Origin: a virus
Length of the DNA stretch: 62,541 bases
Virus genome (UHGV): UHGV-0208829
Strand: one strand, 5' to 3'
The position numbers were made by a program, and so were the translations under genes. Shown one piece after another: positions 1,851 to 41,569 of this stretch (position 1 is its first letter; every line of letters begins with the position of its first letter). Under the pieces are notes generated by a model. The model saw nothing but the letters and a program-made list of their open reading frames with translations, had not been told where the DNA came from and made no database searches.

Positions 1851-3227
1851 ATGGCTGAACTGGTTTATGATTTTACATCCGGCTGCTACCAGAAAGTCGG
1901 AACTCGCGTCGCTCAGGAATCGTTCGGCCGTGATCCGTTCTTCGATGACGCGGAAACCTCATCGGGTTTGTACTACGACTACGGTTTTGGTGGCTACGTC
2001 CCGATGGGATTCTCTGTCGCACACGAAGCCCGTCGTGACGACCGTTTACGTAAAGCGTTTGACGGCGTGTTTAATAAACTCGTGATTGACCGTAAATTGG
2101 CGTCTAAGTTGCGCCACTACGTAAGCGGGATACTCTCTCGTGAAGGTAACGTGGAGTGGTTAGGGTCGAACCTCCTCGGTGTCCACAGCATCCGTTTTTT
2201 TGATTCAGACCGTAATCGTCTGTTCGATGAAGTTATTAACGTCGACGAAGATTATCTGTCAGAACTGATTAAAGAGTCCCAATCGATTAATACCGATTGG
2301 CAGGTCGCGGGTGATACGTATAACCTGACCATCGTGTATTTGTTGCACCTGATGATTCCAAAGTTTGGCGACAAAGAAATCCTCGCTGCAGCCATCGACC
2401 TGGTGACGATACTCCAGTTTAAATTCTACTCGAGTATTTACTATCACTTCTTTCCGAAACCGGTTGATCTTCCCGCAGCAGAAGCGGCGTATTCGATGCT
2501 CTCAATGAAATTCGATATTCGTCGTTTGGGTAACTGGGGGCTGCATATGGCAGAACGTGCAACGTATTTCTGCTCGCCCGAATACCCGAACTACGACGCC
2601 GTAAAACGTTTCGATACCCCCGACTTGGTACTGCGTTATATCACCGATTTAAATACACGTACGAAACAAACCGTGAAAGACTATTACGCGGTGCTCGATC
2701 GTGTACGTCGTGAGAATACTCGCGTGGTTAGTCAGTCTGCACGCATCGAGTTAGATGGGCAGTCTGTGATTCGTGATAAAGTCGGTGCACTAGAGATTGC
2801 AAAACAGAATCTGTTTGATGCGTCTTACGACATTAACAATCTGTACAAGGAAGAGTTGGCTCGTGTGGTGCTAGAAATGGTGCCCAAAGCATCTCCTGCT
2901 GCGCTGAAAACGTTACTGACCTATATCGCCAGTTTACCGATCGGTAAGAAGCGTGATGAAATCAATAGCATTATGGAGGATACGCTCTCACATGCTTTTG
3001 ATGAGATTGTTACCAACCGTATCAACTTCAACGATGCGGTGACGGTGTTGCAGCGTATGCGTGCGTTGTATCAGGCGTCGAAATCACCGAACCCGTACGT
3101 GTTATCCCTACGGTCGAGAATTGAGAAACTGGCGGCGAAGGAAACACATATCCGTCACGAATCCGCGTTAGCAGCTTTGCGTAATGCGTTGCTGTTATAT
3201 TTCTTAATCCGGTCGTTACAGAAATAA
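1851..3227 (+). CDS. hypothetical protein (458 aa)
   Basis: ATG start, GAGG 9 nt upstream; terminator hairpin after stop. Confidence 0.6.
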   Translation: MAELVYDFTSGCYQKVGTRVAQESFGRDPFFDDAETSSGLYYDYGFGGYVPMGFSVAHEARRDDRLRKAFDGVFNKLVIDRKLASKLRHYVSGILSREGNVEWLGSNLLGVHSIRFFDSDRNRLFDEVINVDEDYLSELIKESQSINTDWQVAGDTYNLTIVYLLHLMIPKFGDKEILAAAIDLVTILQFKFYSSIYYHFFPKPVDLPAAEAAYSMLSMKFDIRRLGNWGLHMAERATYFCSPEYPNYDAVKRFDTPDLVLRYITDLNTRTKQTVKDYYAVLDRVRRENTRVVSQSARIELDGQSVIRDKVGALEIAKQNLFDASYDINNLYKEELARVVLEMVPKASPAALKTLLTYIASLPIGKKRDEINSIMEDTLSHAFDEIVTNRINFNDAVTVLQRMRALYQASKSPNPYVLSLRSRIEKLAAKETHIRHESALAALRNALLLYFLIRSLQK

Positions 3228-3235
3228 AAAAGAGT

Positions 3236-3274
3236 TAGCCAGTAACCCTAACGGGTTACTGGCTAGTTTATTTT
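3236..3274. terminator. bidirectional intrinsic terminator
   Basis: 12-bp stem agccagtaaccc/gggttactggct, loop taac, A-rich upstream and T-rich downstream; between convergent genes. Confidence 0.6.
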
Positions 3275-3282
3275 AGCTGGGT

Positions 3283-3519
3283 TCAATGGGGCCCTGACAT
3301 TACCACGAGGTGTATAGAGTAGACCATATTTAGCGCATAGGTAGCTGACGAACCTGCTACCATCAGGCCAAATACTGCAAATGCCTGTACATACCGTGTT
3401 TTTCGTAGTGGGAAACCTTGCGAACGTCCGTATTGTTTTATCGCTTGGTAACTCTCGCGGATCATTTTATACGTCGCTATCCACGAAAAGAACACAAGTA
3501 AATAGTAAATTGGAGCCAT
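3283..3519 (-). CDS. small membrane protein (78 aa, two hydrophobic segments)
   Basis: Track start 3522 is GTG; ATG at 3519 overlaps terminase TGA stop (TGATG) with GAGGA upstream. Confidence 0.45.
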   Translation of the reverse strand: MAPIYYLLVFFSWIATYKMIRESYQAIKQYGRSQGFPLRKTRYVQAFAVFGLMVAGSSATYALNMVYSIHLVVMSGPH

Positions 3520-5627
3520 CACTTCATCCTCTGGCGTTGGATAAGCTCTCTCAAGCTTTCCATTGACGCCACGTTTTGTGTATCAGTGTTAAGTTGAGCA
3601 ATGAGGGACTGGAGACGGTTACGAGCAGCCATTGCTTGAACCGGGTCTAATAACCCGTTTGTGGTTCGCACAAGACGCTCAATTTCCCCCATCAGTTCCT
3701 GCTGTCGCGCCTCCTCCTCGAGTTGTAATTCCTCATCCACCCCTTCACGATTTTCGACTAAATTACGATTGCGCATCATCAATCGACTGTTGTTGATTTC
3801 ATAATGCCCCAGGTTATTCCCAAGCAGCAATAACCACATCGCAAGTAACCAAGAAATCACGAGGTCGTCATGACCTGAAGCTTTGTGGTCAATACGACCA
3901 TTTTTCTCCACGAGGTTAAGTATCTGGTCGATGAGTTCTCCGCAACGGAGTTTATCCGCGGATAAGCGCAACGCCGTGGTGAATACCTCACCGTACAGTT
4001 TACGACGTTTTTCCTGGTCGGTTGAGAAACCGATATATTTACGGAATTTATTCCAGAACTTCTCAGCGTTACCAATAGGCCCACGGTGATACTCTTTGTA
4101 GAGATCGTCCGTACGTGAGTAGTCCTGAGTGATTCTCACAAATAAACGACGATGTAAGTCCGTGACACGAGACTGTAACTGCAGGATAATTGCATCAGCC
4201 ACAGACGAGCCAGTAGACCGCCGTTCCAGGATTAGTACCGTGTTAGGATATCGCACCATAAAATCCGCTAAATGAATCGCGAAAGAGATAACGTTAGATT
4301 CGTTAACGGTTAATTTACCTGCATACTCTGCGGTCACAGAGTTAACAATAGACATGGCGATCGCGTCTCGACCCACAGCCTCAGAGGTATCCAACCCGAT
4401 GACGTGTCGGTCTTTGAGCTTCGTCATCATCTCCTCTTCGGTGTAGTACCAGTCGGTAACGTAGTTTTGTGGTGAAATATCTTTAAACACAGCACGCATA
4501 CGGGAAGCATTCATACGATCTGCATCTTCCGCTGAGAACGGCTTGTTCAGACCACCGGTCGTCCATTCACCCCCGAAGTCACGACGGATCTGGTCAGGAG
4601 TACCTTTGGCGTTCGCAATCATTGCCGCTAACTGCTCATCACTGGTACCGAGCTGACGGTGGTTGTACTTCACGTAGAACATGATACGTGGGACTTCTGC
4701 CGTGGAGTTAGAACGGATGATGTCAATGAGCTGTTTACGGGTTGGAATGTCGATATAGCGCTCATCCCACATAATCCCTGACGTCATCAGCTCGTACATG
4801 TACTTGCCTTCTTCCGTCGCTAAGTCACCCGGGGTTGTTGCGAATACGTTACCGTAAGGAACACCTTCCGCTTCGTTAATACGACGTGCAGCTGTACCGG
4901 ATGCCAGCGCTGCCGGTAGAATGTGGTGTACGTTTTTGGTAAAGGGTCCTTCGTCCGAGAACAGACGACCAGCGGTAAGTCCACGACCGATACCGTTAGC
5001 CGATTCTGGGTCGTTTTGGCCGATGCCCGTAATCAGTTTGTTACCTTGAGCTAAACACGCAAAAGTTTCGCGGTTATCTGGATCGTCTGGATGTGCTGGC
5101 CACAAGTACGACGGTAGACCGTTACGTAGTTGCTTAAGTTTGTTAATGGTTTCTTCACGCAGTGCCGGACCTTTTGTGATAAGAATCGTACGAGAGTTTT
5201 CCAGAAACCGAATTAACCACAACAGTAATCCGCTCATCCCGACGGTTTTACCGTGCTGACGGAGGAATTCGACGGCGGCGTCGATGTTGTTGAAGAAAAT
5301 CCAATACATCGAAAAGTTACCACGGTCGATACGGAACGGAGACCCGTATTTCATACCGTCCGCAGGTACCCTGACGCACTCTCGAAACCAGTACCAAGGG
5401 TTTTCAGCACACTCGATGGCGATGTACGCTTTCTGTTCGTCCGTTAGGTTTTCGTCAAAAGGATCGACTCCTTGCAGCAAAGGGTTATGTAAGGCGAGAT
5501 GAATATAATAGTGCTTTACACCCAGCTTTTTTAGGATATTTGCAAACTTGATAAACGATTTGTTTGTGGTTTTATCGTCAACAATAGCGCCTGGATAATA
5601 ACGCCAGTCCGATTCACGTAGTATCAT
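3519..5627 (-). CDS. terminase large subunit
   Basis: 702 aa; deviant Walker A (LRQHGKTVGMS) N-terminal; C-terminal nuclease-like motifs (IGLDTSEAVGRD, KASGHDDLVISWLLAMW); GAGGAG 6 nt upstream of ATG. Confidence 0.65.
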   Translation of the reverse strand: MILRESDWRYYPGAIVDDKTTNKSFIKFANILKKLGVKHYYIHLALHNPLLQGVDPFDENLTDEQKAYIAIECAENPWYWFRECVRVPADGMKYGSPFRIDRGNFSMYWIFFNNIDAAVEFLRQHGKTVGMSGLLLWLIRFLENSRTILITKGPALREETINKLKQLRNGLPSYLWPAHPDDPDNRETFACLAQGNKLITGIGQNDPESANGIGRGLTAGRLFSDEGPFTKNVHHILPAALASGTAARRINEAEGVPYGNVFATTPGDLATEEGKYMYELMTSGIMWDERYIDIPTRKQLIDIIRSNSTAEVPRIMFYVKYNHRQLGTSDEQLAAMIANAKGTPDQIRRDFGGEWTTGGLNKPFSAEDADRMNASRMRAVFKDISPQNYVTDWYYTEEEMMTKLKDRHVIGLDTSEAVGRDAIAMSIVNSVTAEYAGKLTVNESNVISFAIHLADFMVRYPNTVLILERRSTGSSVADAIILQLQSRVTDLHRRLFVRITQDYSRTDDLYKEYHRGPIGNAEKFWNKFRKYIGFSTDQEKRRKLYGEVFTTALRLSADKLRCGELIDQILNLVEKNGRIDHKASGHDDLVISWLLAMWLLLLGNNLGHYEINNSRLMMRNRNLVENREGVDEELQLEEEARQQELMGEIERLVRTTNGLLDPVQAMAARNRLQSLIAQLNTDTQNVASMESLRELIQRQRMK

Positions 5628-27497: not shown

Positions 27498-30400
27498 ATG
27501 GCTAAAAAAGGTAAAGATGATTTCGATGAAATCGATCTTGATAACATGGACGACTGGGACGATTTTGATGAGCCCCCTCGTCAACAAGACCAATCGCGTA
27601 ACCCGGTCATGGACACATTTCGTGCTGCCCGTAAGTCGGCGTTGTCGACTATCTGGCCCGAAAACAAACGTGATCAGGTTATTTTAAAAGGGATGCCTAA
27701 ACCTGCGGCAGAAGCCTACGAAGGCTATCAAAACGTTAAAGCTGCAGGTCAAGACATTCTGGCCCATACGAAAGACGAGATTGAAAAGACGTCTCGCGTC
27801 GTTAAGATGCAAGCGAGACAGTTAGGCCCAACACTGAAACGGTATTTACCGGAATCCGTAACACGGAAAATCGACAAGTGGGCACGTAACGATCAAATCG
27901 ACTATGGGAATTACGATCCTAAACAAGCGATGATGGATCGTGAGCTGGACAGCGTGTTCTCAGGTGCACCGCAAACGGCGGACCAGCAACGCGAAACGCA
28001 AGAAGGGATGGTTGAAGACCGCTTGCGTGACACGATTAAGGACATGAAGTCCGACGCACTGTTCCAGACAGTAATCGGTATTGCAAAAGACGTCAACTTA
28101 ACGACTAGCTTAAGTCGTGGCGTGTTGTTGAATGTTCAGCGTAAGCAGTTAGAGCTGCAATACCGGACATTGTTTGCTTTGCAGGATATTGCGAAACTCA
28201 AACAAGACGAGTTTGCACGCAATACACCGGCATTAGAAGCCATCGTTAAGAACACAGCACTGCCAGACTACGCGAAGGAAGAGTTTTCTGAAATTCGTTG
28301 GGCTAATGTAAAACGTAAAGCTGCGGAGTGGATGAACCCCTTACACTACGCAGATAATTTCATTGGTCAGATTCGCGAAAACGCGAAGAAGAAAATCTCG
28401 AACATCTTTAGTGATGGTCGTGGGATTCTAGAACAAGTTCTAGGGATGGCTCAGGAAGATGACTTTGACATGTCGGACAGCTCATCGTTGTCTCCTGACC
28501 GTCGTAACACAAACTCGCGTAATAAAGCGGCAGGTTTTGCAGGTGGGTGGGTCGCAAAACGTCTCTTACAACCCCAGATCGAACGTCTTCAGAACTGGAC
28601 CCGTGGCGAGTTAGAGAAAAACCCAGAAGTCATGAAACGCCTACAGTTGGCGAAGTATGGCTTTGGAAATTTGTCGTCTATTTCTAACTCGGCAATAGCA
28701 GGAGAAACAAGCGGTCCGTTAGCTGATCTGTTTCGACTAATGCACGAGTTGGGGTTAGTTAACCCGCTACGTCGCGAAACCTTAGCATTAGACGATCGTT
28801 CTGCGGAATCTCTTTCTGCCGCGGCGAAATTCGATCGTAAAGCTTACCTTAGTATCACCGAAGTTATTCCGACGTTACTGTCCGAGATTAACAAATCTAT
28901 TCGTCGTGGGTATGGCGAACACCACGATCAGGTTTATGACCTGACCACGCGCGGCATGGTGGATCGCAAAGTTATTGGTAATCGCGTACGTAAGGCCGTT
29001 GCTAATGACGATCAGCGCAAACGTTTACAGACGTACATCAACGACACTGTCGACTTTATCGATAAAGATAAAACGCTCGATAGGAAAACACGTCAAGCGT
29101 TAGCGGACTACATCGAATCTCGTGCCTCAGAAGGGAAAGCGTTCGATGTAGGGTCTTTATTGAAAGACCCGATGCACATGTATCGGTACATGAACGCAAA
29201 CGCTGTGGAAGCGATTCAGGGTATTTTAGAAACCCGTTCTGCGGAACTGGTTGGCGGTCACCATGAACTGAGTAATGCGATTTCAAACAAAATCGCCGCT
29301 ATTCAGTCAACGATTCGTGCACGTCAAGACACGGTTGATGCTGCGTCTGTGATTTACGGCGAGAACGCACTTCGCGATTCCGGTATTTTTAAATACGATG
29401 CGAAGAACGACATTTTCGAAGTCGATAAGGACATTAACGATCCCTATACGCTATTTAACGACCTGTCGATGGGTAAGACCCGTTCTGGCCGTTCGTTAAC
29501 CCGTGAGCAAGAGATTCAACGTAAGCTGCAAAATGGTTCTGCGTTGGGTGATTACTTGCGTCGGATGGGTGCAGGAGCAGAGCCGAGCTTTGAAGACAAA
29601 GAACTGTCCAACGTACGTGGTGGTGGAAAAGGTGGTCGCGGTCGTGGTTTAAGCGCCCGTCAACTCGCTGCGGTACTTTATGGAGAGAAATCTACCAACT
29701 TTGTTGAGCTCTTAAGCAACCGTCCAGATACGAACGCTGGGCTGGAACAACAGTTCGATCGATTGATTGATGCGGTACGTAAACAGTCCGAATCTAGCAC
29801 CGTGCAAGATATCCTCAAACACGTTAAGAACATGGATGAGGAAGGTATTCTTCTAGCCAGTTTAGGCGGTAGCCGTGATGACGGTGACGAACCTGAAAGT
29901 TCGAGTGAATCGGGCCGTAAACGTCGTCGTAAGCGCAAACGTATTGTACTAGGCGAGACAGGTTTGCTACGTCGCTGGGCTGGGGTGCTTTGGGATACCG
30001 GTTCTGGTGTAGGACGGTTTGGTAAGAATCTGTTCCTACGTGGGAAAGATCGCCTACAAGCATTAGGTGGTTTTATTCGCGGGAAATTCTCAGGCGGTTC
30101 CTCCGAAGGTCCCGGCGTATTTAGCCGACTGAAAGGGTTAGTAACCGGTACATTATCGACGGGTTGGAATTCTGCCGTAGCTTTCGGTAAAGGCGTTTTA
30201 GGCGTTCGCGACATCTACGATGAACGTGGTAACGTCGTATTACAAGGAAGTCGTTTAGAGGCTGGGGAATATTACCAGGCTGACCCGAAAACTGAGAAGC
30301 TGATTCAACTTAAAACTCTCGACGATATTAAACTGGGACGTGACATCGTCGACGAAGCGGGTAATTTAATCTTAGCGGCTGCTGATTTGGCTGCCGCAGG

Positions 30401-31010
30401 TAAACTGCGCTTCTACAAAGGCGGTAAAGTTCAAGCGCTTTTCCAGTACATTTCTGGGAAAGCAGGAACGGCGGTAAACAAAGCTGTGACTTTACCGAAG
30501 AAACTTCTGGGTTTCATTTCGCCTAAAGCGGCTTCGTTGTTCGAGAAAGCACGCGAGTGGTTAAATGAGGTTCCAGAGGGTGCAGAGAAAACCCGTTTAC
30601 AAAGCATGATTTCCCGCGTAACGGGAATGCCAGCTCGTCTGTGGAACAATGCAAAACGTGGGTTTGAGAAGCTCAAAGAGTTGGCTTCTGATAATCCGTT
30701 GACACGTTGGTGGCAGAACCGTAAGGAAGGGGGCTCTGGTGGTGGGTTTAGTGTGTTCTCGTGGTCGAATGGCCGTAAAACTAACCACATCCTAATCCGT
30801 ATCTACAAACTCCTTAACCGGAGATTGCCAGGTGAACCTGAAGATGACACCTGGACAGAACAGATGGAGCGGAATACAGGGGCCAGTTCAGTTAAAGGAT
30901 TATTCCAACGTGCTAAGGCCATACGCGATGGGTTCCGTGAACATTTTCAAGGTTTCCGGGTTTGCGTGGTCGGATGCGTGACAGAATGTCCCGTTACCGC
31001 AGTGCGGTAG
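27498..31010 (+). CDS. giant protein (1170 aa), probable virion-associated
   Basis: ATG start; acidic N-terminus, Gly/Arg-rich and polybasic RKRRRKRKR segments. Confidence 0.55.
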   Translation: MAKKGKDDFDEIDLDNMDDWDDFDEPPRQQDQSRNPVMDTFRAARKSALSTIWPENKRDQVILKGMPKPAAEAYEGYQNVKAAGQDILAHTKDEIEKTSRVVKMQARQLGPTLKRYLPESVTRKIDKWARNDQIDYGNYDPKQAMMDRELDSVFSGAPQTADQQRETQEGMVEDRLRDTIKDMKSDALFQTVIGIAKDVNLTTSLSRGVLLNVQRKQLELQYRTLFALQDIAKLKQDEFARNTPALEAIVKNTALPDYAKEEFSEIRWANVKRKAAEWMNPLHYADNFIGQIRENAKKKISNIFSDGRGILEQVLGMAQEDDFDMSDSSSLSPDRRNTNSRNKAAGFAGGWVAKRLLQPQIERLQNWTRGELEKNPEVMKRLQLAKYGFGNLSSISNSAIAGETSGPLADLFRLMHELGLVNPLRRETLALDDRSAESLSAAAKFDRKAYLSITEVIPTLLSEINKSIRRGYGEHHDQVYDLTTRGMVDRKVIGNRVRKAVANDDQRKRLQTYINDTVDFIDKDKTLDRKTRQALADYIESRASEGKAFDVGSLLKDPMHMYRYMNANAVEAIQGILETRSAELVGGHHELSNAISNKIAAIQSTIRARQDTVDAASVIYGENALRDSGIFKYDAKNDIFEVDKDINDPYTLFNDLSMGKTRSGRSLTREQEIQRKLQNGSALGDYLRRMGAGAEPSFEDKELSNVRGGGKGGRGRGLSARQLAAVLYGEKSTNFVELLSNRPDTNAGLEQQFDRLIDAVRKQSESSTVQDILKHVKNMDEEGILLASLGGSRDDGDEPESSSESGRKRRRKRKRIVLGETGLLRRWAGVLWDTGSGVGRFGKNLFLRGKDRLQALGGFIRGKFSGGSSEGPGVFSRLKGLVTGTLSTGWNSAVAFGKGVLGVRDIYDERGNVVLQGSRLEAGEYYQADPKTEKLIQLKTLDDIKLGRDIVDEAGNLILAAADLAAAGKLRFYKGGKVQALFQYISGKAGTAVNKAVTLPKKLLGFISPKAASLFEKAREWLNEVPEGAEKTRLQSMISRVTGMPARLWNNAKRGFEKLKELASDNPLTRWWQNRKEGGSGGGFSVFSWSNGRKTNHILIRIYKLLNRRLPGEPEDDTWTEQMERNTGASSVKGLFQRAKAIRDGFREHFQGFRVCVVGCVTECPVTAVR

Positions 31011-34000
31011 GTGGCCGTCTTTCTCGTTGGGGTGGTGCAGCACGTGATTGGTTTGACCGTTTCCGTGGCCGTGCAAGCGATATGGTCGATACCTTCCGTG
31101 ATCCGCGTTACGATATCGGAACACGTTATCGAATGGAGAGTCGTTTAGCAGGACGCGATGACGACGTTGCTGAGTTTTATCGTCAACACATCTACGCAAG
31201 AGGCAAGGTGTCTAAAACACGTATCATCGATGCGGCAAAAGAAGACTTAGATACCGTAACGGATAGCGCTGGACGTGTGATTAATAAAGGGAAACAGAAA
31301 GCCCGTAGCGTTGGGTCGGCTTTACTGGAACGCCTGAACAGAATGGTTAATCTTCAGGAAATGTCGTGGTTTAATACCATGCGCGATTCTGCGGAAAAAG
31401 CAGGTGCTTCGGATGGTTTGTTAAGAACCATGTTCAGTAAGTTCGGTCAACGTAACAAGCCACCTGCCAGTGATGAAAAACGCGATTACTTCCAGTTCTT
31501 CCGACGCCGTCGTCGTTCTAAGGAAGAGGAAAAGGCTAAGAAAGAGGCTGAGAAGAAAGGCGGTAAACGTGGGGTAATGGATTTCCTTAAAGGACTGCCG
31601 TTGGTAGGACCGATTGTGAGTATTTTAGGCACAGTGGGTTCAATCTTAGGTAAAGTCGCAAAATGGGGAATCTTTAAGCCGGTTGGGTTTGCAGGCAAAG
31701 CGTTGTGGAACGTTGGTAAATTTGCCGTAACCCGTTTGGCTGTTCCTGCGGTGAGTGCTGTCGCGACGGCAGCATCTGCAGTGGTAACTGCGGTTGGCTG
31801 GCCGATTATCGGTTTGGTTGCTGCAGGCGCTGCGTTGTCTTGGTTTGCGTATAAAACTGCAACCCGTGTGAATGCCCAGTATCTGGATAACATGCGATTG
31901 GCACAGTACGGATTTAGAGATCATGATGAGTGGTCTTCCGATGATGGTGCAAAAGCACGTTATTTAGAAGACAACTTGAAACCGTATATCTCTTATACAG
32001 AGAACGGTCAAGCACAGTTGCGTGGTTTGTCCGGTGACGACGTGAAGAAACTGGCCGAAGGGTTTGGTACTAACGTAGAAGACAAAGGCGAAATGCTGGC
32101 GTTTACTGCGTTTATGTTACAACGTTTTGTGCCGATCTATTTACGTTGGATTACAGCGTTACGTTCAATGGATAACGATATCGCGTTAGCTGATGTTGGT
32201 AATCCGTCGAAGGTATCAAAAGCAGACATGCTTACCATCTTTAACAAAATGAAGATGACAAAAGATGCGCCCGCTTTTAAATCGCTGACAGACCCCCGTA
32301 AAGTTAACCAAGGTTGGTTCTCTAAAGCGTGGGATTTCGTGACCTTCACACCGGCAGAATTTTTGTCAGGTGAAGAAGTTGTCGAAGCACAAGATCGTGT
32401 TTTCCGTTCGATCAACATGCGTCGTGATGATAAGCGTAAGGAAACAACTGGAGTCGGTGCTGTGCCTGAAGGACATAAGGTTGCTTCTGTGGCAGAATCT
32501 TCGCAGGTACTCGCGAAGAACGATACCGAGCGTAACGAAACTGTTGCTAAAGCTGAGGGTTGGGAAGACGGTACTGAACAGGTTCAAATTCAAGTTGACT
32601 GGAGAGTATTACCTGAGAAGAAAGATTTGGACGCGATGGAATCCGTCCGTTGGAAATCTTACGGTGTGAAATCTGTTAATGAGACAACACGTACCCTCTT
32701 TAGGTTGCTTGAGAAAGAAGTGTTGAAGGACACGGATATCAAAAATTGCATTTATAAGGGCGATTGGAAGAAAGCAATTTCTGCGATTGCGCCTGATGCA
32801 ATTGGCGGTCCAAAAGAGGAACGTTACAAGAACTGGTTCTATAATCGATTCTTACCTGTATTCATGACTTACGTTTATGGTGTAAAACGCTACGTACCTC
32901 ATGCCGATCCGTTGGATCTGAAACTCACAGGGGGGTTCCTCTATGAGCTGGCACTGATGATGCGTGGTGCTTACAACATGAAAGGGGGTATCCGACAGTC
33001 TGTGTGGGAAATCGCATTTAACCCGTTAGGGGGCGATGCGAATACCGATGCAGGTTCAGTGAGGGAAGAATTAGCAACGCTGAAAGAGTTGTCTAAAGAA
33101 CCCGATCTGGCTGTAAGGAATATGCTCAAAGAAACACCGAGCACGCCTAAGCGTATGACATGGAAATCGCCAGCGACAAACTCCAGTGTCCATCAGACGA
33201 ATGAAGATAGCAAAGAGCGTTATAAGGGAATTAACAGCTACGGCGAAGCTTCAAACGACGGCTACTTACCGAAGGGTGGCCAGTCCTACGGTACGCCAGG
33301 TGACCTATCACAAGTTGTTGGCGATATGGGTATAGGGAACTATGCGAAATACTCCACTGGACAATCGGGTATCACCCTCGGTGAGTTACAAGACGGTGAT
33401 TACAAGTCGTTAGTGACTAAATACCCAAGGGAAGTGCTCGGCAAACCGATGCAGTCAAATACTGAAGCCATCAAGTCATTGATTATTGACGCGGCAAACA
33501 TGGTGGGTATTCCGCCATCTGTTGCGATTGCAATGGCACAAGCAGAATCTGGCTTGCAGTATGGCAACTATCCTGGCGCATCCTCTGGCAGACCGAGAAG
33601 TAATAAGATGACTGCCGCTGGCCTGTTCCAATTCACCAACGGTACTTGGAACGGGGTTATGAAGCAATACGCCCGAAGATACGGTATCCCACAAACCGAT
33701 CAGTTCGACCCGTGGGCTAACGCAATCTTAGGTGTTAACTTCATTAGAGACAACATCAAGACCGCACAAAAGGATCTGGGTGGGATTGCCCCGCCACCGG
33801 CAGTAGCGTACCTATACCACTTCTTAGGTCCAGGTGGTGGTGCTGAGTTCCTTAAAGCCTGGAAAACCAATCCTAACGGCTCGCCCGACAAAGTGAAGTA
33901 CATTACACCTGCCGTTCTTAACGGTAACGAAGGTGTTTTCTACATCATGAACGGGAAGAAACGCGTTAGGATGCGTACGGTCGGCGAGGTTGTCGAGGAG

Positions 34001-34663
34001 CTGAACCGCCGTATGGGTGCGGTTGGAACTAACGAGATTGCAGCAAATCCTGCGTCTGCGAAAAACATGACAAAAGGGTTATCGCCAGTTCCATCGTCTC
34101 CTGCAATTGCTGCGGGCGCTGCTAACGATCCGTCTATTGCTGGACCGGCAGATAACCTGCCAGCCGCGAACGAGGCGAATCGTGACACCGCTTTAGCAGA
34201 CAAAGGTGCGATGGGTGCCGAAGATATTAAAGCTGCAACGGGTGGTGGTCCGGCTGTGCCGAGTCCTGGCGGCGACGTTACGCCGAGTGATGCGTCTGTC
34301 GTTGTAGAAACGGTGGGTAAAAATGCGCGTGCCGACGGCCTGGCCGAAGAGGAAGTTGCCAAAGTAAAAGAAGGTGCTAGACAGCAAATGGAGAAATCCG
34401 CACGTCCTGCACCAACGGTAACGTCTGATGCACAGACTGCGCCAACAGTGAACAGCGGCGATCCGATTAGCGTACAACAGCTGGCGGTTGCAAAAGAGTC
34501 TGCGGGCTATCTGAGAGAGATTGTTACAATTCTTCGTCAGCGGCCACAGGCTATGCAGCCATCCCCAGCGACCTCGGCAGCTTCTGCTCCGGGATCAGCA
34601 TCACGTAACATCGCGGTTGAACAACCTGCCCGCCAACTCGATGTTGGTCGTAAACGGGCGTAA
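30974..34663 (+). CDS. giant protein with lytic transglycosylase (SLT) domain and transmembrane segments
   Basis: First ATG at 30974 (track start 30962 is TTG); SLT motifs AMAQAESGLQ ... AAGLFQF ... AYLYHFLGPGG around 33430-33900; hydrophobic stretch; Ala/Pro-rich C-terminus. Confidence 0.6.
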   Translation: MRDRMSRYRSAVGGRLSRWGGAARDWFDRFRGRASDMVDTFRDPRYDIGTRYRMESRLAGRDDDVAEFYRQHIYARGKVSKTRIIDAAKEDLDTVTDSAGRVINKGKQKARSVGSALLERLNRMVNLQEMSWFNTMRDSAEKAGASDGLLRTMFSKFGQRNKPPASDEKRDYFQFFRRRRRSKEEEKAKKEAEKKGGKRGVMDFLKGLPLVGPIVSILGTVGSILGKVAKWGIFKPVGFAGKALWNVGKFAVTRLAVPAVSAVATAASAVVTAVGWPIIGLVAAGAALSWFAYKTATRVNAQYLDNMRLAQYGFRDHDEWSSDDGAKARYLEDNLKPYISYTENGQAQLRGLSGDDVKKLAEGFGTNVEDKGEMLAFTAFMLQRFVPIYLRWITALRSMDNDIALADVGNPSKVSKADMLTIFNKMKMTKDAPAFKSLTDPRKVNQGWFSKAWDFVTFTPAEFLSGEEVVEAQDRVFRSINMRRDDKRKETTGVGAVPEGHKVASVAESSQVLAKNDTERNETVAKAEGWEDGTEQVQIQVDWRVLPEKKDLDAMESVRWKSYGVKSVNETTRTLFRLLEKEVLKDTDIKNCIYKGDWKKAISAIAPDAIGGPKEERYKNWFYNRFLPVFMTYVYGVKRYVPHADPLDLKLTGGFLYELALMMRGAYNMKGGIRQSVWEIAFNPLGGDANTDAGSVREELATLKELSKEPDLAVRNMLKETPSTPKRMTWKSPATNSSVHQTNEDSKERYKGINSYGEASNDGYLPKGGQSYGTPGDLSQVVGDMGIGNYAKYSTGQSGITLGELQDGDYKSLVTKYPREVLGKPMQSNTEAIKSLIIDAANMVGIPPSVAIAMAQAESGLQYGNYPGASSGRPRSNKMTAAGLFQFTNGTWNGVMKQYARRYGIPQTDQFDPWANAILGVNFIRDNIKTAQKDLGGIAPPPAVAYLYHFLGPGGGAEFLKAWKTNPNGSPDKVKYITPAVLNGNEGVFYIMNGKKRVRMRTVGEVVEELNRRMGAVGTNEIAANPASAKNMTKGLSPVPSSPAIAAGAANDPSIAGPADNLPAANEANRDTALADKGAMGAEDIKAATGGGPAVPSPGGDVTPSDASVVVETVGKNARADGLAEEEVAKVKEGARQQMEKSARPAPTVTSDAQTAPTVNSGDPISVQQLAVAKESAGYLREIVTILRQRPQAMQPSPATSAASAPGSASRNIAVEQPARQLDVGRKRA

Positions 34664-39450: not shown

Positions 39451-39747
39451 TTATACCGCGACAGGCGCAGCAATATGTGGTTGTGCTTGATATCCAACCA
39501 ATTCGAAGTCTTCGTATTTATAATCGAAGATAGAATCAGGTTTACGTTTGATAACCAGTTTAGGTAACGGATAAGGTTCACGGGTAAGCTGAAGTTTTGC
39601 TTGCTCCAGATGGTTAGAGTACAAATGGACGTCTACGCCACTGTAAACCAACTCGTCTGGAACCATGTTCAGTTGTTGAGCAACGATGTGTGTTAACAAC
39701 GCGTAAGAGGCGATGTTAAATGGCAAACCTAAGAATACGTCATTACT
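39451..39747 (-). CDS. thyA: thymidylate synthase, exon 2
   Basis: [18 protein letters not shown]...HLYSNH...PHIAAPVAV matches the ThyA C-terminal half; in frame with exon 1 after intron removal. Confidence 0.85.
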
Positions 39748-40831
39748 CATTACGTTCAGATGCGGTCGTTAGTCGCATCCCGCGCCATTACGCGCAGCTG
39801 CATGTCACCATGCAGATCGGACTATATCACCCTCTACAATGTAGAGGCTCTCCCGTTTCGAGAACACTTGTTCCCTACGAACAGTCACGTTCTAGTCTCT
39901 GGGCATTTATCTGACCATTTCCATGTGGCATACTTTGGATTTTTACTGTTTACTCTCCAGAGGACAACGGTTTTGTGTTTACCTAGCTGTCTTCCGGCCT
40001 CTGTAATACTTTCGTATTCGATGCCGTCAATGTTTACTGGTCTGCTGTTTGTGGGCTTGGTACCCATCATGCGTTCGGCAAGTTTACGTTTAGTCTCGTC
40101 AGAATGTTGTCTACCGTAAAAAGGATTTTTCTCTCCAACACGCTGTGAAGCAATGATGGATAACTTTCTACGTGTTTCCTCACTGCGTTTTATCCCGATG
40201 CACGGTGAGGTATTATGTTTATACCATTCTGCTAACTTCTCTCTAATTTTCTTCCTGGTTTCGGGAGTATGCGTGCGACCATACATGCCATTTGCCTTGC
40301 CGAATTTACCGTAAATTTTTTGACGTTCTTCCTTTGTCATTTTTGAGAATCTTCGATAGAGCGAGTTAGTCATTTTTTGAATAATCTCTGCCCTTCTTGG
40401 ATTCCTACTAATGCAGTCGTAACCGCATTCAATGTTAACAAACCCTTTTTCACTACTAATCATTTTCTGTTCGAGCTCTCGCGCCTTCGTTTTAGATGAA
40501 CAAGGCACGATAGTTGGGTTACCGTCGTATCTATATCCTTCATTCCAGATTTTCTGGAGTGTAAAGTTATGATGCGTACCTTTCTCTAACAGATTTAAAT
40601 GAATTTTGATACGCTCGTTGAAATCACGAGTCTCTCCGACGTAGCGAAAACGTTTTTCACCTTTTACGAAAGTAATAATGTAAACAACTGCCATAGGACC
40701 TCCTTTGTTTCATATTAAAAGGTTGTCCTAGAAATGGTTCGAATTTAGCAACGGGTTCTCTCCGTGGAGTTCTTCCCGTTTTAAGGAGAGTTTTTCGACT
40801 AAGGTCACCCTTAGAAGGCGCAGTTATGTTT
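39748..40831 (-). mobile_element. group I self-splicing intron (1084 nt) in thyA
   Basis: Exon 1 ends in U (CGU), intron ends in G (AAUG|AGU); R-like element CAGAGACUAGAAC (39889-39901) and S-like element GAUAUAGUCC (39819-39828) give P7 GACUA/UAGUC; splice restores KLSCFYMMR|SNDVFLGLP. Confidence 0.8.
39885..40694 (-). CDS. intron-encoded GIY-YIG homing endonuclease (I-TevI-like)
   Basis: VYIITF...RYVGET...LEKGTHHNFTLQKIWNEGY matches I-TevI catalytic domain; NUMOD-like repeats; C-terminal HTH-like region; AAGGAGG upstream of ATG. Confidence 0.85.
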   Translation of the reverse strand: MAVVYIITFVKGEKRFRYVGETRDFNERIKIHLNLLEKGTHHNFTLQKIWNEGYRYDGNPTIVPCSSKTKARELEQKMISSEKGFVNIECGYDCISRNPRRAEIIQKMTNSLYRRFSKMTKEERQKIYGKFGKANGMYGRTHTPETRKKIREKLAEWYKHNTSPCIGIKRSEETRRKLSIIASQRVGEKNPFYGRQHSDETKRKLAERMMGTKPTNSRPVNIDGIEYESITEAGRQLGKHKTVVLWRVNSKNPKYATWKWSDKCPETRT

Positions 40832-41569
40832 ACGCATCATGTAAAAACATGAAAGTTTACGACGCGGGATACCTTCACGATCTAAAGTTTCATGAAGTCG
40901 TTCTTCATCATCAATATCTTCGTGATTAATAAGTGGTGCGTTCGCAAATTTTTCCGGTTCATTTGCTTCGTACCAATCCAGTCGCTCAAGCAGTGTCATT
41001 TCTGTAGTGTAGAACTGGAAGTAGTTGTGACACGGATTAAGTGCCATATCGTCCAGGTCACCTACATTCCAGGCACTAACAATAATACGGCGGGAGTCAG
41101 GGTCTTCACGAAGTTGTTGGATAACTTTCCCGATCTGGTCATGTGCTTTTTCATAAACCAAATACGTCGTACCATCTTCCTTCATATTCCCAATATACTT
41201 GTAACCCCGCTGCATTAGTTGTTGCGTACGTCTTACGTCATGACACTCCACAACTTTACAGTCGCGCCATTCGCGCCATTGTTTACCATAAACTGGCCCT
41301 AAGTTCCCCTCTTCATCACTCCATGCATTCCAGATTTTTACCCCGTTCTCTTGCAGGTACTTCACGTTAGTGTCACCGTTTAAGAACCACAACAGTTCAT
41401 GAATGATACTTTTCAGGTGAACCTTTTTCGTAGTAACTAATGGGAAACCTTCTTTCAAGTCAAAACGTAGTTGACGACCAAATACAGAAAGTGTCCCTAC
41501 ACCTGTACGATCTTTCTTAACAACGCCGTTATTCAGAATGTCTTGCATTAACGATAAATACTGTTTCAT
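40832..41569 (-). CDS. thyA: thymidylate synthase, exon 1
   Basis: [74 protein letters not shown]; active-site PCH at 41027-41035; track ORF reads 6 codons into intron before stop. Confidence 0.9.

Follow-up and report, generated by a model that had tools for sequence, protein, structure and literature searches.

A probable td-type group I intron that carries a GIY-YIG homing endonuclease gene and interrupts the gene for thymidylate synthase in phage genome UHGV-0208829

The UHGV virus genome UHGV-0208829 was analysed as a stretch of 62,541 nucleotides (nt), the whole of which is referred to here as the window. On its minus strand lies thyA, the gene for thymidylate synthase (ThyA), and direct reading of the sequence finds this gene broken at 40832/40831 and again at 39748/39747. 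The insert between these positions, 40831..39748, begins AAACAUAACUGCGCC and finishes CUGAACGUAAUG, its last base being the G at 39748. An initial annotation, made from the sequence alone, had given the same boundaries and the same length, and both are exact. Here we report that the locus is very probably a self-splicing intron of group I, td type (IA2), with a GIY-YIG homing endonuclease gene of the I-TevI/I-BmoI family in its P6 loop, a reading drawn from sequence comparison and predicted RNA structure. The interrupted gene is made up as follows.

40832..41569, minus strand: thyA exon 1, 246 codons, MKQYLSLM...LSCFYMMR, supported by the Pfam and E. coli ThyA matches of the joined exons
39748..40831, minus strand: probable group I intron, td-like (IA2) and 1,084 nt long, whose terminal G (omega-G) is 39748
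39451..39747, minus strand: thyA exon 2, 98 codons and a stop, ending ...APVAV

Exon 1 ends ...TGT TTT TAC ATG ATG CGT (C F Y M M R), its final T being 40832, and exon 2 starts from 39747 with AGT AAT GAC GTA TTC TTA GGT TTG CCA (S N D V F L G L P). The list of open reading frames (ORFs) presents the region as a 252-amino-acid (aa) exon-1 ORF at 40811-41569, a 269-aa internal ORF at 39885-40694 and a 99-aa exon-2 ORF at 39451-39750. The first of these runs six codons into the insert and then meets UAA at 40813-40811; the last takes its start codon, AUG, from the terminal UAAUG of the intron. The expected ligated junction reads ...AUGAUGCGU/AGUAAUGAC, and the joined exons encode a 344-aa ThyA that covers the Pfam model PF00303 (Thymidylat_synt) over 1-266 of its 266 positions with 367 bits and aligns with E. 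coli ThyA without a break at the junction. By tblastn the spliced protein matches, as a single piece over residues 1-344 and with 60-65% identity, the uninterrupted thyA of SPN3US, Goslar and many Erwinia jumbo phages. Compared with E. coli ThyA the window protein has two large insertions, at aa 103-143 and 190-236, which are common to SPN3US-type phages, and the existence of intronless homologues with the same two lineage-specific insertions fixes the junction. An intronless junction would read ...TACATGATGCGT/AGTAATGACGTA... in the window type, and reads ...TATCAGCGT/TCTGCTGAC... in the SPN3US type. The domain match, the E. coli alignment and the 344-aa homologues bear out the earlier proposal that removal of the insert restores ThyA. 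The KLSC-x5-R spacing quoted in its favour has to be corrected to four intervening residues; the conserved ThyA sequence is restored at the junction as proposed.

The ribozyme is split by the internal ORF into two parts, and its main elements are placed as follows.

40818..40828, minus strand: internal guide sequence, CAUAACU (40828-40822) facing AGUAAUG of exon 2 as P10 and GCGC (40821-40818) facing GCGU of exon 1 as P1
40811..40813, minus strand: in-frame UAA within the 5' strand of P2, which would halt ribosomes coming from exon 1
40734..40831, minus strand: 5' ribozyme core, with the P1 3' strand, P2 at 40814-40799, the P3 5' strand at 40790-40784, P4-P5 at 40780-40750 and the P6 5' strand at 40740-40734
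39748..39918, minus strand: 3' ribozyme core, P6-P7.2 part, with the P6 3' strand at 39918-39913, the P7 5' strand GACUA at 39897-39893, P7.1 at 39892-39879 and P7.2 at 39875-39860
39748..39918, minus strand: 3' ribozyme core, P3-P9.2 part, with the P3 3' strand at 39854-39848, P8 at 39847-39831, the P7 3' strand UAGUC at 39824-39820, P9 at 39815-39798, P9.1 at 39797-39780 and P9.2 at 39779-39759

Covariation was assessed in eight introns from the thyA site, which were aligned after their ORFs had been cut out, with P1, P10 and P2-P9.2 marked on the window row. Standard pairs occupy 89.4% of the cells, compared with 36-43% when the partners are slid by 1-3 columns, and both sides change at 38 of the 78 pairs, compared with 9-13 when slid; the observed values were reached in none of 500 shuffles. 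P7 (GACUA x UAGUC) is 100% paired and has two covarying pairs, P3 is 96% paired, and P4, P8, P9 and P9.2 each covary. P7 is formed by the R-like element CAGAGACUAGAAC and the S-like element GAUAUAGUCC, which the initial annotation had picked out and which are indeed present, at intron positions 931-943 and 1004-1013. P7.1 (GAAC-GUGACU-GUUC, 39892-39879) is found in the closer relatives, with longer stems instead in the others, and P7.2 (GGGAAC-AAGU-GUUCUC, 39875-39860) is 95.7% paired with three covarying pairs. It is the presence of P7.1/P7.2 and P9.1/P9.2 that assigns the intron to IA2, the type of the T4 td, nrdB and sunY introns. An unconstrained minimum free energy (MFE) fold of an ORF-less allele of this intron recovered P2-P6, P7.2, P8, P9, P9.1 and P9.2 (z = -3.7, with none of 200 shuffles as good).

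The guide sequence ties this fold to both exons. P1, the pairing of exon GCGU with the GCGC at intron positions 11-14 that had also been proposed from the sequence alone, has a wobble pair U40832.G40821 at the splice site; it is invariant in eight of eight introns because it is tied to the Arg codon, and the covariance-model scan placed it in homologues too. P10 (CAUAACU x AGUAAUG) changes on both sides at six of its seven pairs across the eight introns, following the exon-2 Ser codon, whether AGU or UCA. Since P10 covaries with a synonymous choice of Ser codon, the 3' splice site is pinned without recourse to the protein alignment. In all members of the family an in-frame stop falls inside the first 21 nt of the intron. 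The P9.2 loop UAACGA (window 39759-39779) and J2/3 AGUCGAA (40793-40798) are near-invariant across the thyA-site introns. A tertiary pairing of GUCG in J2/3 with CGAC in L9.2 was considered by eye and dropped, there being no covariation to test and one intron, L076, that does not fit. P6 could otherwise be drawn as UCUAGGAC x GUCAGA, the pairing of T4 and of phage Bobb; GAACCAU x AUGGUC was preferred, since it changes compensatorily in the introns of locus L211 and of phage RisingSun, both described below.

The internal ORF and its ribosome-binding site occupy the P6 loop.

40699..40705, minus strand: Shine-Dalgarno (SD) sequence AAGGAGG of the endonuclease gene, predicted to pair with an upstream AGGAC..CCUUU in a hairpin
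39885..40694, minus strand: endonuclease gene, 269 aa, with a GIY-YIG domain, NUMOD3 repeats and an I-TevI-type C-terminal DNA-binding domain

In Pfam the 269-aa ORF scores 30.4 bits on GIY-YIG (PF01541, cut-off 22.6) and 56.9 bits on NUMOD3, in two stretches, and it also matches I-TevI_DNA-bd. A search of PDB returned 1i3j, residues 130-245 of I-TevI bound to DNA, with E = 1.5e-10, and the I-TevI catalytic domain weakly. The protein was aligned with I-TevI, the proteins of RisingSun and Bobb, and three database relatives, and Y18, R28, H32, H41, E75 and N87 fall in invariant columns that correspond to Y17, R27, H31, H40, E75 and N90 of I-TevI; the first catalytic Tyr is present as VVYII. Identity to I-TevI is about 32%, and the I-TevI zinc-finger segment KFCKCGVRIQTSAYTCSKC has no counterpart, NUMOD3 repeats and a single Cys standing in its place. 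An ORF with GIY-YIG motifs closely resembling I-TevI had been announced; the motifs and the catalytic residues are there, and the resemblance is less close than stated. Neither is the ORF free-standing, as it had been called, being encoded by the intron: its last ~12 codons overlap the P6 3' strand, J6/7, the P7 5' strand and P7.1, and its stop, UGA at 39887-39885, lies in the P7.1 loop. Compared with the ORF of metagenome contig L247, it shows 12 synonymous and 9 non-synonymous differences, and the resulting pN/pS of 0.19 indicates that it is maintained as a protein under purifying selection. The intron and endonuclease, which the initial annotation called an active-looking pair, may be active. 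Translation of the endonuclease is probably held back by the hairpin predicted over the ribosome-binding site, as for I-TevI, whose delayed translation is the subject of a paper cited in PMC3984707. Within the window no further intron or endonuclease paralogue was found by tblastn, core motifs or Rfam.

Introns at the same site of thyA, between the Arg and Ser codons, were found by scanning IMG/VR, metagenomes and genomes for the guide-sequence/P2 motif GCGCCTTCTNNNNGTGANNNNAGT and filtering the matches. At least 13 distinct introns in 16 loci sit at this Arg/Ser site, all of them with an exon 1 ending in GCGT and a P2 GUGA hairpin, and exon 2 begins Ser-x-Asp in every locus long enough to show it. 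The window intron belongs to this family: it directly follows a CGU Arg codon, has the guide GCGC and has a homologous core. Further members lie in several IMG/VR contigs of 220-250 kilobases (kb). In the genome contigs the guide/P2 pattern gave 83 matches, none of which was kept after filtering for an upstream GCGT and a paired P2; these were chance matches, and no bacterial copy was found by pattern.

Two members come from isolated phages. In Erwinia phage vB_EamM_RisingSun (gp186-gp187-gp188; L001, MF459646.1 162523-164748) a homologous intron of 1,089 nt interrupts thyA at the identical position, gp186 and gp188 being the exons of one gene, and its GIY-YIG gene lies in the same loop and is 45% identical at the protein level. 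The ORF-deleted cores of the two introns are 82% identical; the RisingSun ORF ends before J6/7, whereas that of the window continues into P7.1. GenBank labels gp186 and gp188 as separate 'putative thymidylate synthase' genes around a GIY-YIG gene and gives no intron, and the records NC_042018.1 and Joad match the endonuclease query likewise. Bacillus phage Bobb (gp223-gp222-gp221) has a homologous intron at the same position, with a GIY-YIG gene of 39% identity in the same loop, and splitting of its thyA by an intron endonuclease has been suggested (PMC4528723).

Independent assemblies (L247, L248, L337 and L338) have the arrangement of the window. The identical 269-aa ORF lies between the same exons in two independent Logan assemblies, and near-identical copies occur in two JGI/ENA metagenome contigs, L247 and L248. 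The alleles of this lineage comprise an intact endonuclease gene (window, L247 and the two Logan assemblies), one with many indels and apparent frameshifts (L248) and one with no ORF (L211). The last of these, on a 225-kb contig (SKEP01000003.1), has the exon sequence of the window around a 273-nt ORF-less intron in which the first 92 nt of the window intron are identical and the last ~170 nt nearly so, with 283 of 287 positions matching the ORF-deleted window core; the contigs are ~83% identical over 6.7 kb upstream and 93% identical downstream. The P6 hairpin of L211 retains CAUGGAAAUG, the last codons of the ORF, with the compensatory changes GAUCAU/AUGAUC compared with GAACCAU/AUGGUC, so that L211 looks like an ORF-deletion derivative and not an ancestor. 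A clear co-conversion tract was not found, the identity of the window to L211 and L247 around the intron being a mosaic of 90-100% throughout the region.

Some further observations concern the site and its introns. Within exon 1 the stretch 41100-41299 (~aa 103-143), which corresponds to one of the two large insertions relative to E. coli ThyA, is 52-68% identical between the window and L211, compared with 89-100% in the adjoining 100-nt bins. The introns of L213 and L129, at the Arg/Ser site, carry another ORF (RRNLSKRWYNM...) that is not GIY-YIG; in L213 it has a just-sub-threshold I-HmuI NUMOD-like domain and in L129 it is a truncated, 98-aa version, so that at least two types of endonuclease have colonised a single insertion site. 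Among the matches listed, at least 120 viral contigs and more (>120; IMG/VR loci L005-L124) contain the P9 hairpin TCTGCATGGTGACATGCAG, which suggests a very wide spread of td-like introns among phages. In L121, three group I introns that pass Rfam lie within 2 kb of one another (2277-4134).

A number of points weigh against an intron with a working homing endonuclease at this locus. The window has no Rfam match at the gathering score, which for the group I model RF00028 is 50 bits, nor anything at E <= 0.1 over its whole length; a local search in E-value mode returned only a partial match, to the 3' part at 39798-39984, with 22.7 bits and E = 0.003. P5 has only 3 base pairs, and the pairing of P6 is somewhat ambiguous in the ORF-bearing form. 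The margin of the I-TevI_DNA-bd match over its cut-off is slight (28.5 bits, cut-off 27), and the MFE z-scores of the SD hairpin are modest, at -2.07 in the window and -2.22 for the analogous hairpin of RisingSun. An IMG/VR scan for the intronless FYMMR/SND junction (TAYATGATGCGTAGTAAYGAYGT) gave 0 matches, in a database that appears in any case to be without the window lineage. Efficient splicing in T4 depends on coupled translation, according to work cited in PMC3073962, and such coupling would be absent if the window phage builds a nucleus-like compartment, as it probably does.

The Rfam miss is explained by the ~815-nt insert in the P6 loop, with its 810-nt ORF, which breaks the model, and it was dismissed as evidence against an intron once the ORF-less allele had been found: L211 scores 64.8 bits on RF00028, and other ORF-less introns at the thyA site score 59.5 (L076), 58.5 (L132) and 80.6 bits (L175). 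The initial annotation had taken the absence of a group I model hit as grounds for rejecting the intron, and because of this insert such a check would give a false negative here. The window itself stays below the gathering score, and its ORF-less allele passes.

Other explanations of the locus were weighed against the same data. That thyA is dead, split by an endonuclease cassette that does not splice, with the ThyA fragments either relics or acting separately, would fit the missing gathering-score match and the public annotations, in which two 'thymidylate synthase' coding sequences surround a GIY-YIG gene (RisingSun gp186/187/188 and Bobb gp223/222/221; PMC4528723). We regard it as very improbable. 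The non-coding sequence on either side of the ORF forms a complete group I core that is rich in compensatory changes, the guide sequence follows both exons down to the choice of Ser codon, both exons are intact and in phase with every conserved ThyA motif retained, and ORF-less versions exceed the Rfam threshold. An assembly artefact or chimera, with the insert absent from the phage genome, has the lowest probability that we give to any reading: the identical ORF stands between the same exons in two independent Logan assemblies, L247 and L248 are near-identical copies, and isolated phages have homologous introns at the same site.

A different objection accepts the intron and its splicing and concerns the endonuclease, which may no longer, or not only, serve homing: it could be a passenger in decay, a factor in splicing or repression, or an interference weapon aimed at the thyA of co-infecting relatives. 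The many indels in the L248 ORF and the loss of the ORF from L211, with its last codons kept as a P6 hairpin, are stages of an endonuclease decay cycle, and the intronless allele of the lineage was absent from the IMG/VR scan. Interference has a precedent in the nucleus-forming phage PhiPA3, in which an intron-encoded endonuclease acts in interference competition (PMC11620839), and the window phage belongs, like PhiPA3, to the broad group of jumbo phages that encode a multisubunit RNA polymerase of their own. Set against this, the ORF of the window is intact, retains all GIY-YIG catalytic residues and shows the low pN/pS given above; interference and homing can coexist, and thyA is usually dispensable, which would make cutting it a weak weapon. 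We consider this explanation unlikely, though less so than the other two. The initial annotation described thyA as essential, which for a phage it need not be.

Phage thymidylate synthase genes have been known since the 1980s to contain group I introns with GIY-YIG endonucleases. The T4 td intron shares with the window intron its host gene, its subgroup and its helices, including P7.1/P7.2 and P9-P9.2; the cores are 60% identical overall and 69% in the 3' half, the P9 hairpin is identical, and both end ...UGAACxUAAUG. In both, the endonuclease gene lies in the P6 loop and its final codons (KWxW...) overlap the P6 3' strand and J6/7, the two enzymes have the same domain families and catalytic residues, and the SD-sequestering hairpin predicted in the window is a further likeness to T4 I-TevI. 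The differences lie in the site, the linker and the host. The td intron is inserted between G and L (QWYQRSVDVFLG/LPFNIASY, DVFLG/LPFN), whereas the window intron is not at the td insertion site and stands 21 nt upstream, between R and S (CFYMMR/), and since the insertion site differs, so does the guide sequence. The linker zinc finger of I-TevI (CxC...CxxC) is absent from the window enzyme, which has extra NUMOD3 repeats instead, and the host of the window intron is a jumbo phage, that of td a T-even phage. I-TevI cuts 23-25 nt upstream of the td insertion site. Its cleavage of td falls within CAACG, upstream of its DNA-binding site, with C1 and G5 critical (PMC5009752); in T4 this motif spans the Gln codon and the two bases that open the Arg codon, and G5 is the Arg middle base.

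In the absence of a zinc finger and the presence of NUMOD modules, the window endonuclease is nearer in architecture to I-BmoI, described as a GIY-YIG endonuclease without a zinc finger (PMC5009752) and with NUMOD DNA-binding modules (PMC3664794). An isoschizomer of I-TevI, I-BmoI needs only G5 of GCCCG (NNNNG) at the homologous position, and its intron differs from td in its position in the gene (PMC5009752). Its cleavage falls 2-5 nt upstream of the site where its own intron is inserted, and its binding is mainly to exon 2 (PMC3161791, PMC2853131); it nicks beside G-2 of that site (PMC3161791) and has a homing site that spans -10 to +41 (PMC2853131). Position -2 of the window site is the G of Arg CGU, so that the intron sits at the cleavage point of both I-TevI and I-BmoI; the intron end UAAUG puts U at -2, like the G-2T of the I-BmoI intron-plus allele (PMC3161791). 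By analogy we infer that the window intron shares the I-BmoI-type insertion site of Bacillus mojavensis thyA. The I-BmoI ORF sits elsewhere in its intron than the I-TevI ORF (PMC5009752), whereas the window ORF is at the I-TevI position, and the host of I-BmoI is a bacterial chromosome (B. mojavensis), that of the window element a phage. In ribozyme and ORF position the window element thus resembles td, and in its linker and apparent site it resembles I-BmoI.

Other known introns offer partial parallels. The thy intron of Bacillus phage beta22, reportedly described in 1994 by Bechhofer, Hue & Shub in PNAS 91:11669, is said to be a group I intron at a site other than td and to have a degenerate remnant of an ORF. 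It reportedly lies 21 bp from the td site, which would be the site of the window intron. Among phiKZ-like jumbo phages, PhiPA3 (gp210) and 201phi2-1 (gp273/274) have group I introns, but in RNA polymerase genes. The intron in the RNA polymerase beta gene of 201phi2-1 has an RF00028 score of 87 bits and is 81% identical over ~102 nt to window 39755-39859; by megablast against 50,697 phage records it was the sole match (81%, at the intron 3' end), with no close relative of the locus found. The PhiPA3 intron endonuclease is HNH, not GIY-YIG (PMC11620839).

Around the site, ThyA of the window, L211, L247 and L248 reads C-FYMM-R/S (end of exon 1, window 40832-40846), whereas SPN3US, E. coli and other thyA-site introns from jumbo-phage-sized contigs have C-QLYQ-R/S; in Bobb, L175 and L199 only the first two positions differ and YQR is kept. 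FYMM thus amounts to four substitutions in a normally near-invariant active-site strand, and these fall exactly on the presumed endonuclease cleavage motif, changing CAGCG to ATGCG with loss of C1, on which I-TevI depends. In the window lineage this change could stem from an arms race over cleavage preference.

Taken as an intron with a homing endonuclease, the locus would work as follows. Splicing would take the usual two-step route of group I introns. In the pre-mRNA the guide GCGC would pair with exon GCGU, and guanosine would attack after U40832; CAUAACU would then bring exon 2 into line by forming P10, and the intron would leave with its terminal G (39748), yielding an mRNA that encodes ThyA in its full length of 344 aa. 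Ribosomes would be kept off the core by the in-frame UAA, which lies 18 nt into the intron. In an intronless thyA the C-terminal domain of the endonuclease would bind the DNA that codes for DVFLGLPFN, and the enzyme would cut at the Arg codon just upstream of the bound DNA, where I-TevI and I-BmoI both cut; repair from an intron-bearing copy would insert the intron. The intron-bearing allele would be immune, its cleavage site being parted from the binding site and U replacing the critical G at -2.

Also encoded in the window are large virion proteins, a terminase, a tail sheath and an RNA polymerase beta subunit of phiKZ type. This subunit shares 82% identity with its counterparts in Erwinia phages Stratton, phiEaH2 and Asesino and 76-80% with those of the SPN3US group, and on the strength of this 76-82% identity the host phage is a new relative of the Erwinia/SPN3US-group jumbo phages. 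Elsewhere in the window, the ORFs 27498-31010 and 30962-34663, both on the plus strand, overlap by 49 nt in different frames and match positions 1-1024 and 1200-2406 of the 2,408-position phrog_3201 'tail fiber protein'; this split match could reflect a frameshift, an error in sequencing or a giant virion gene that is truly divided.

These results do not overturn current understanding. Homologues at the same site are already in public genomes, where they are annotated as split genes. The annotation should be corrected: the three ORFs now listed at 39451-41569 ought to become a single spliced thyA with an intron-encoded endonuclease, and the RisingSun/Joad GenBank records, with their two ThyA fragments, need the same correction. 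ORF-bearing group I introns can slip below Rfam thresholds, and a missing covariance-model match is not evidence of absence. If the phage does build a nucleus-like compartment, the endonuclease would need to be imported before it could act on DNA, and splicing would have to proceed uncoupled from translation. Related jumbo phages provide a natural series of alleles, from intronless (SPN3US-type) and ORF-less (L211) to those with an intact (window, L247) or an apparently decayed endonuclease gene (L248), and this series, together with the mix of td-like and I-BmoI-like traits, bears on target-site switching. A model of escape to a new target site has been proposed (PMC5009752), and we put forward, as a tentative and so far doubtful suggestion, that the Arg/Ser-site family is a natural link between the td and I-BmoI homing systems, in which the intron-endonuclease unit would have moved 21 nt within thyA, onto its own cleavage site.

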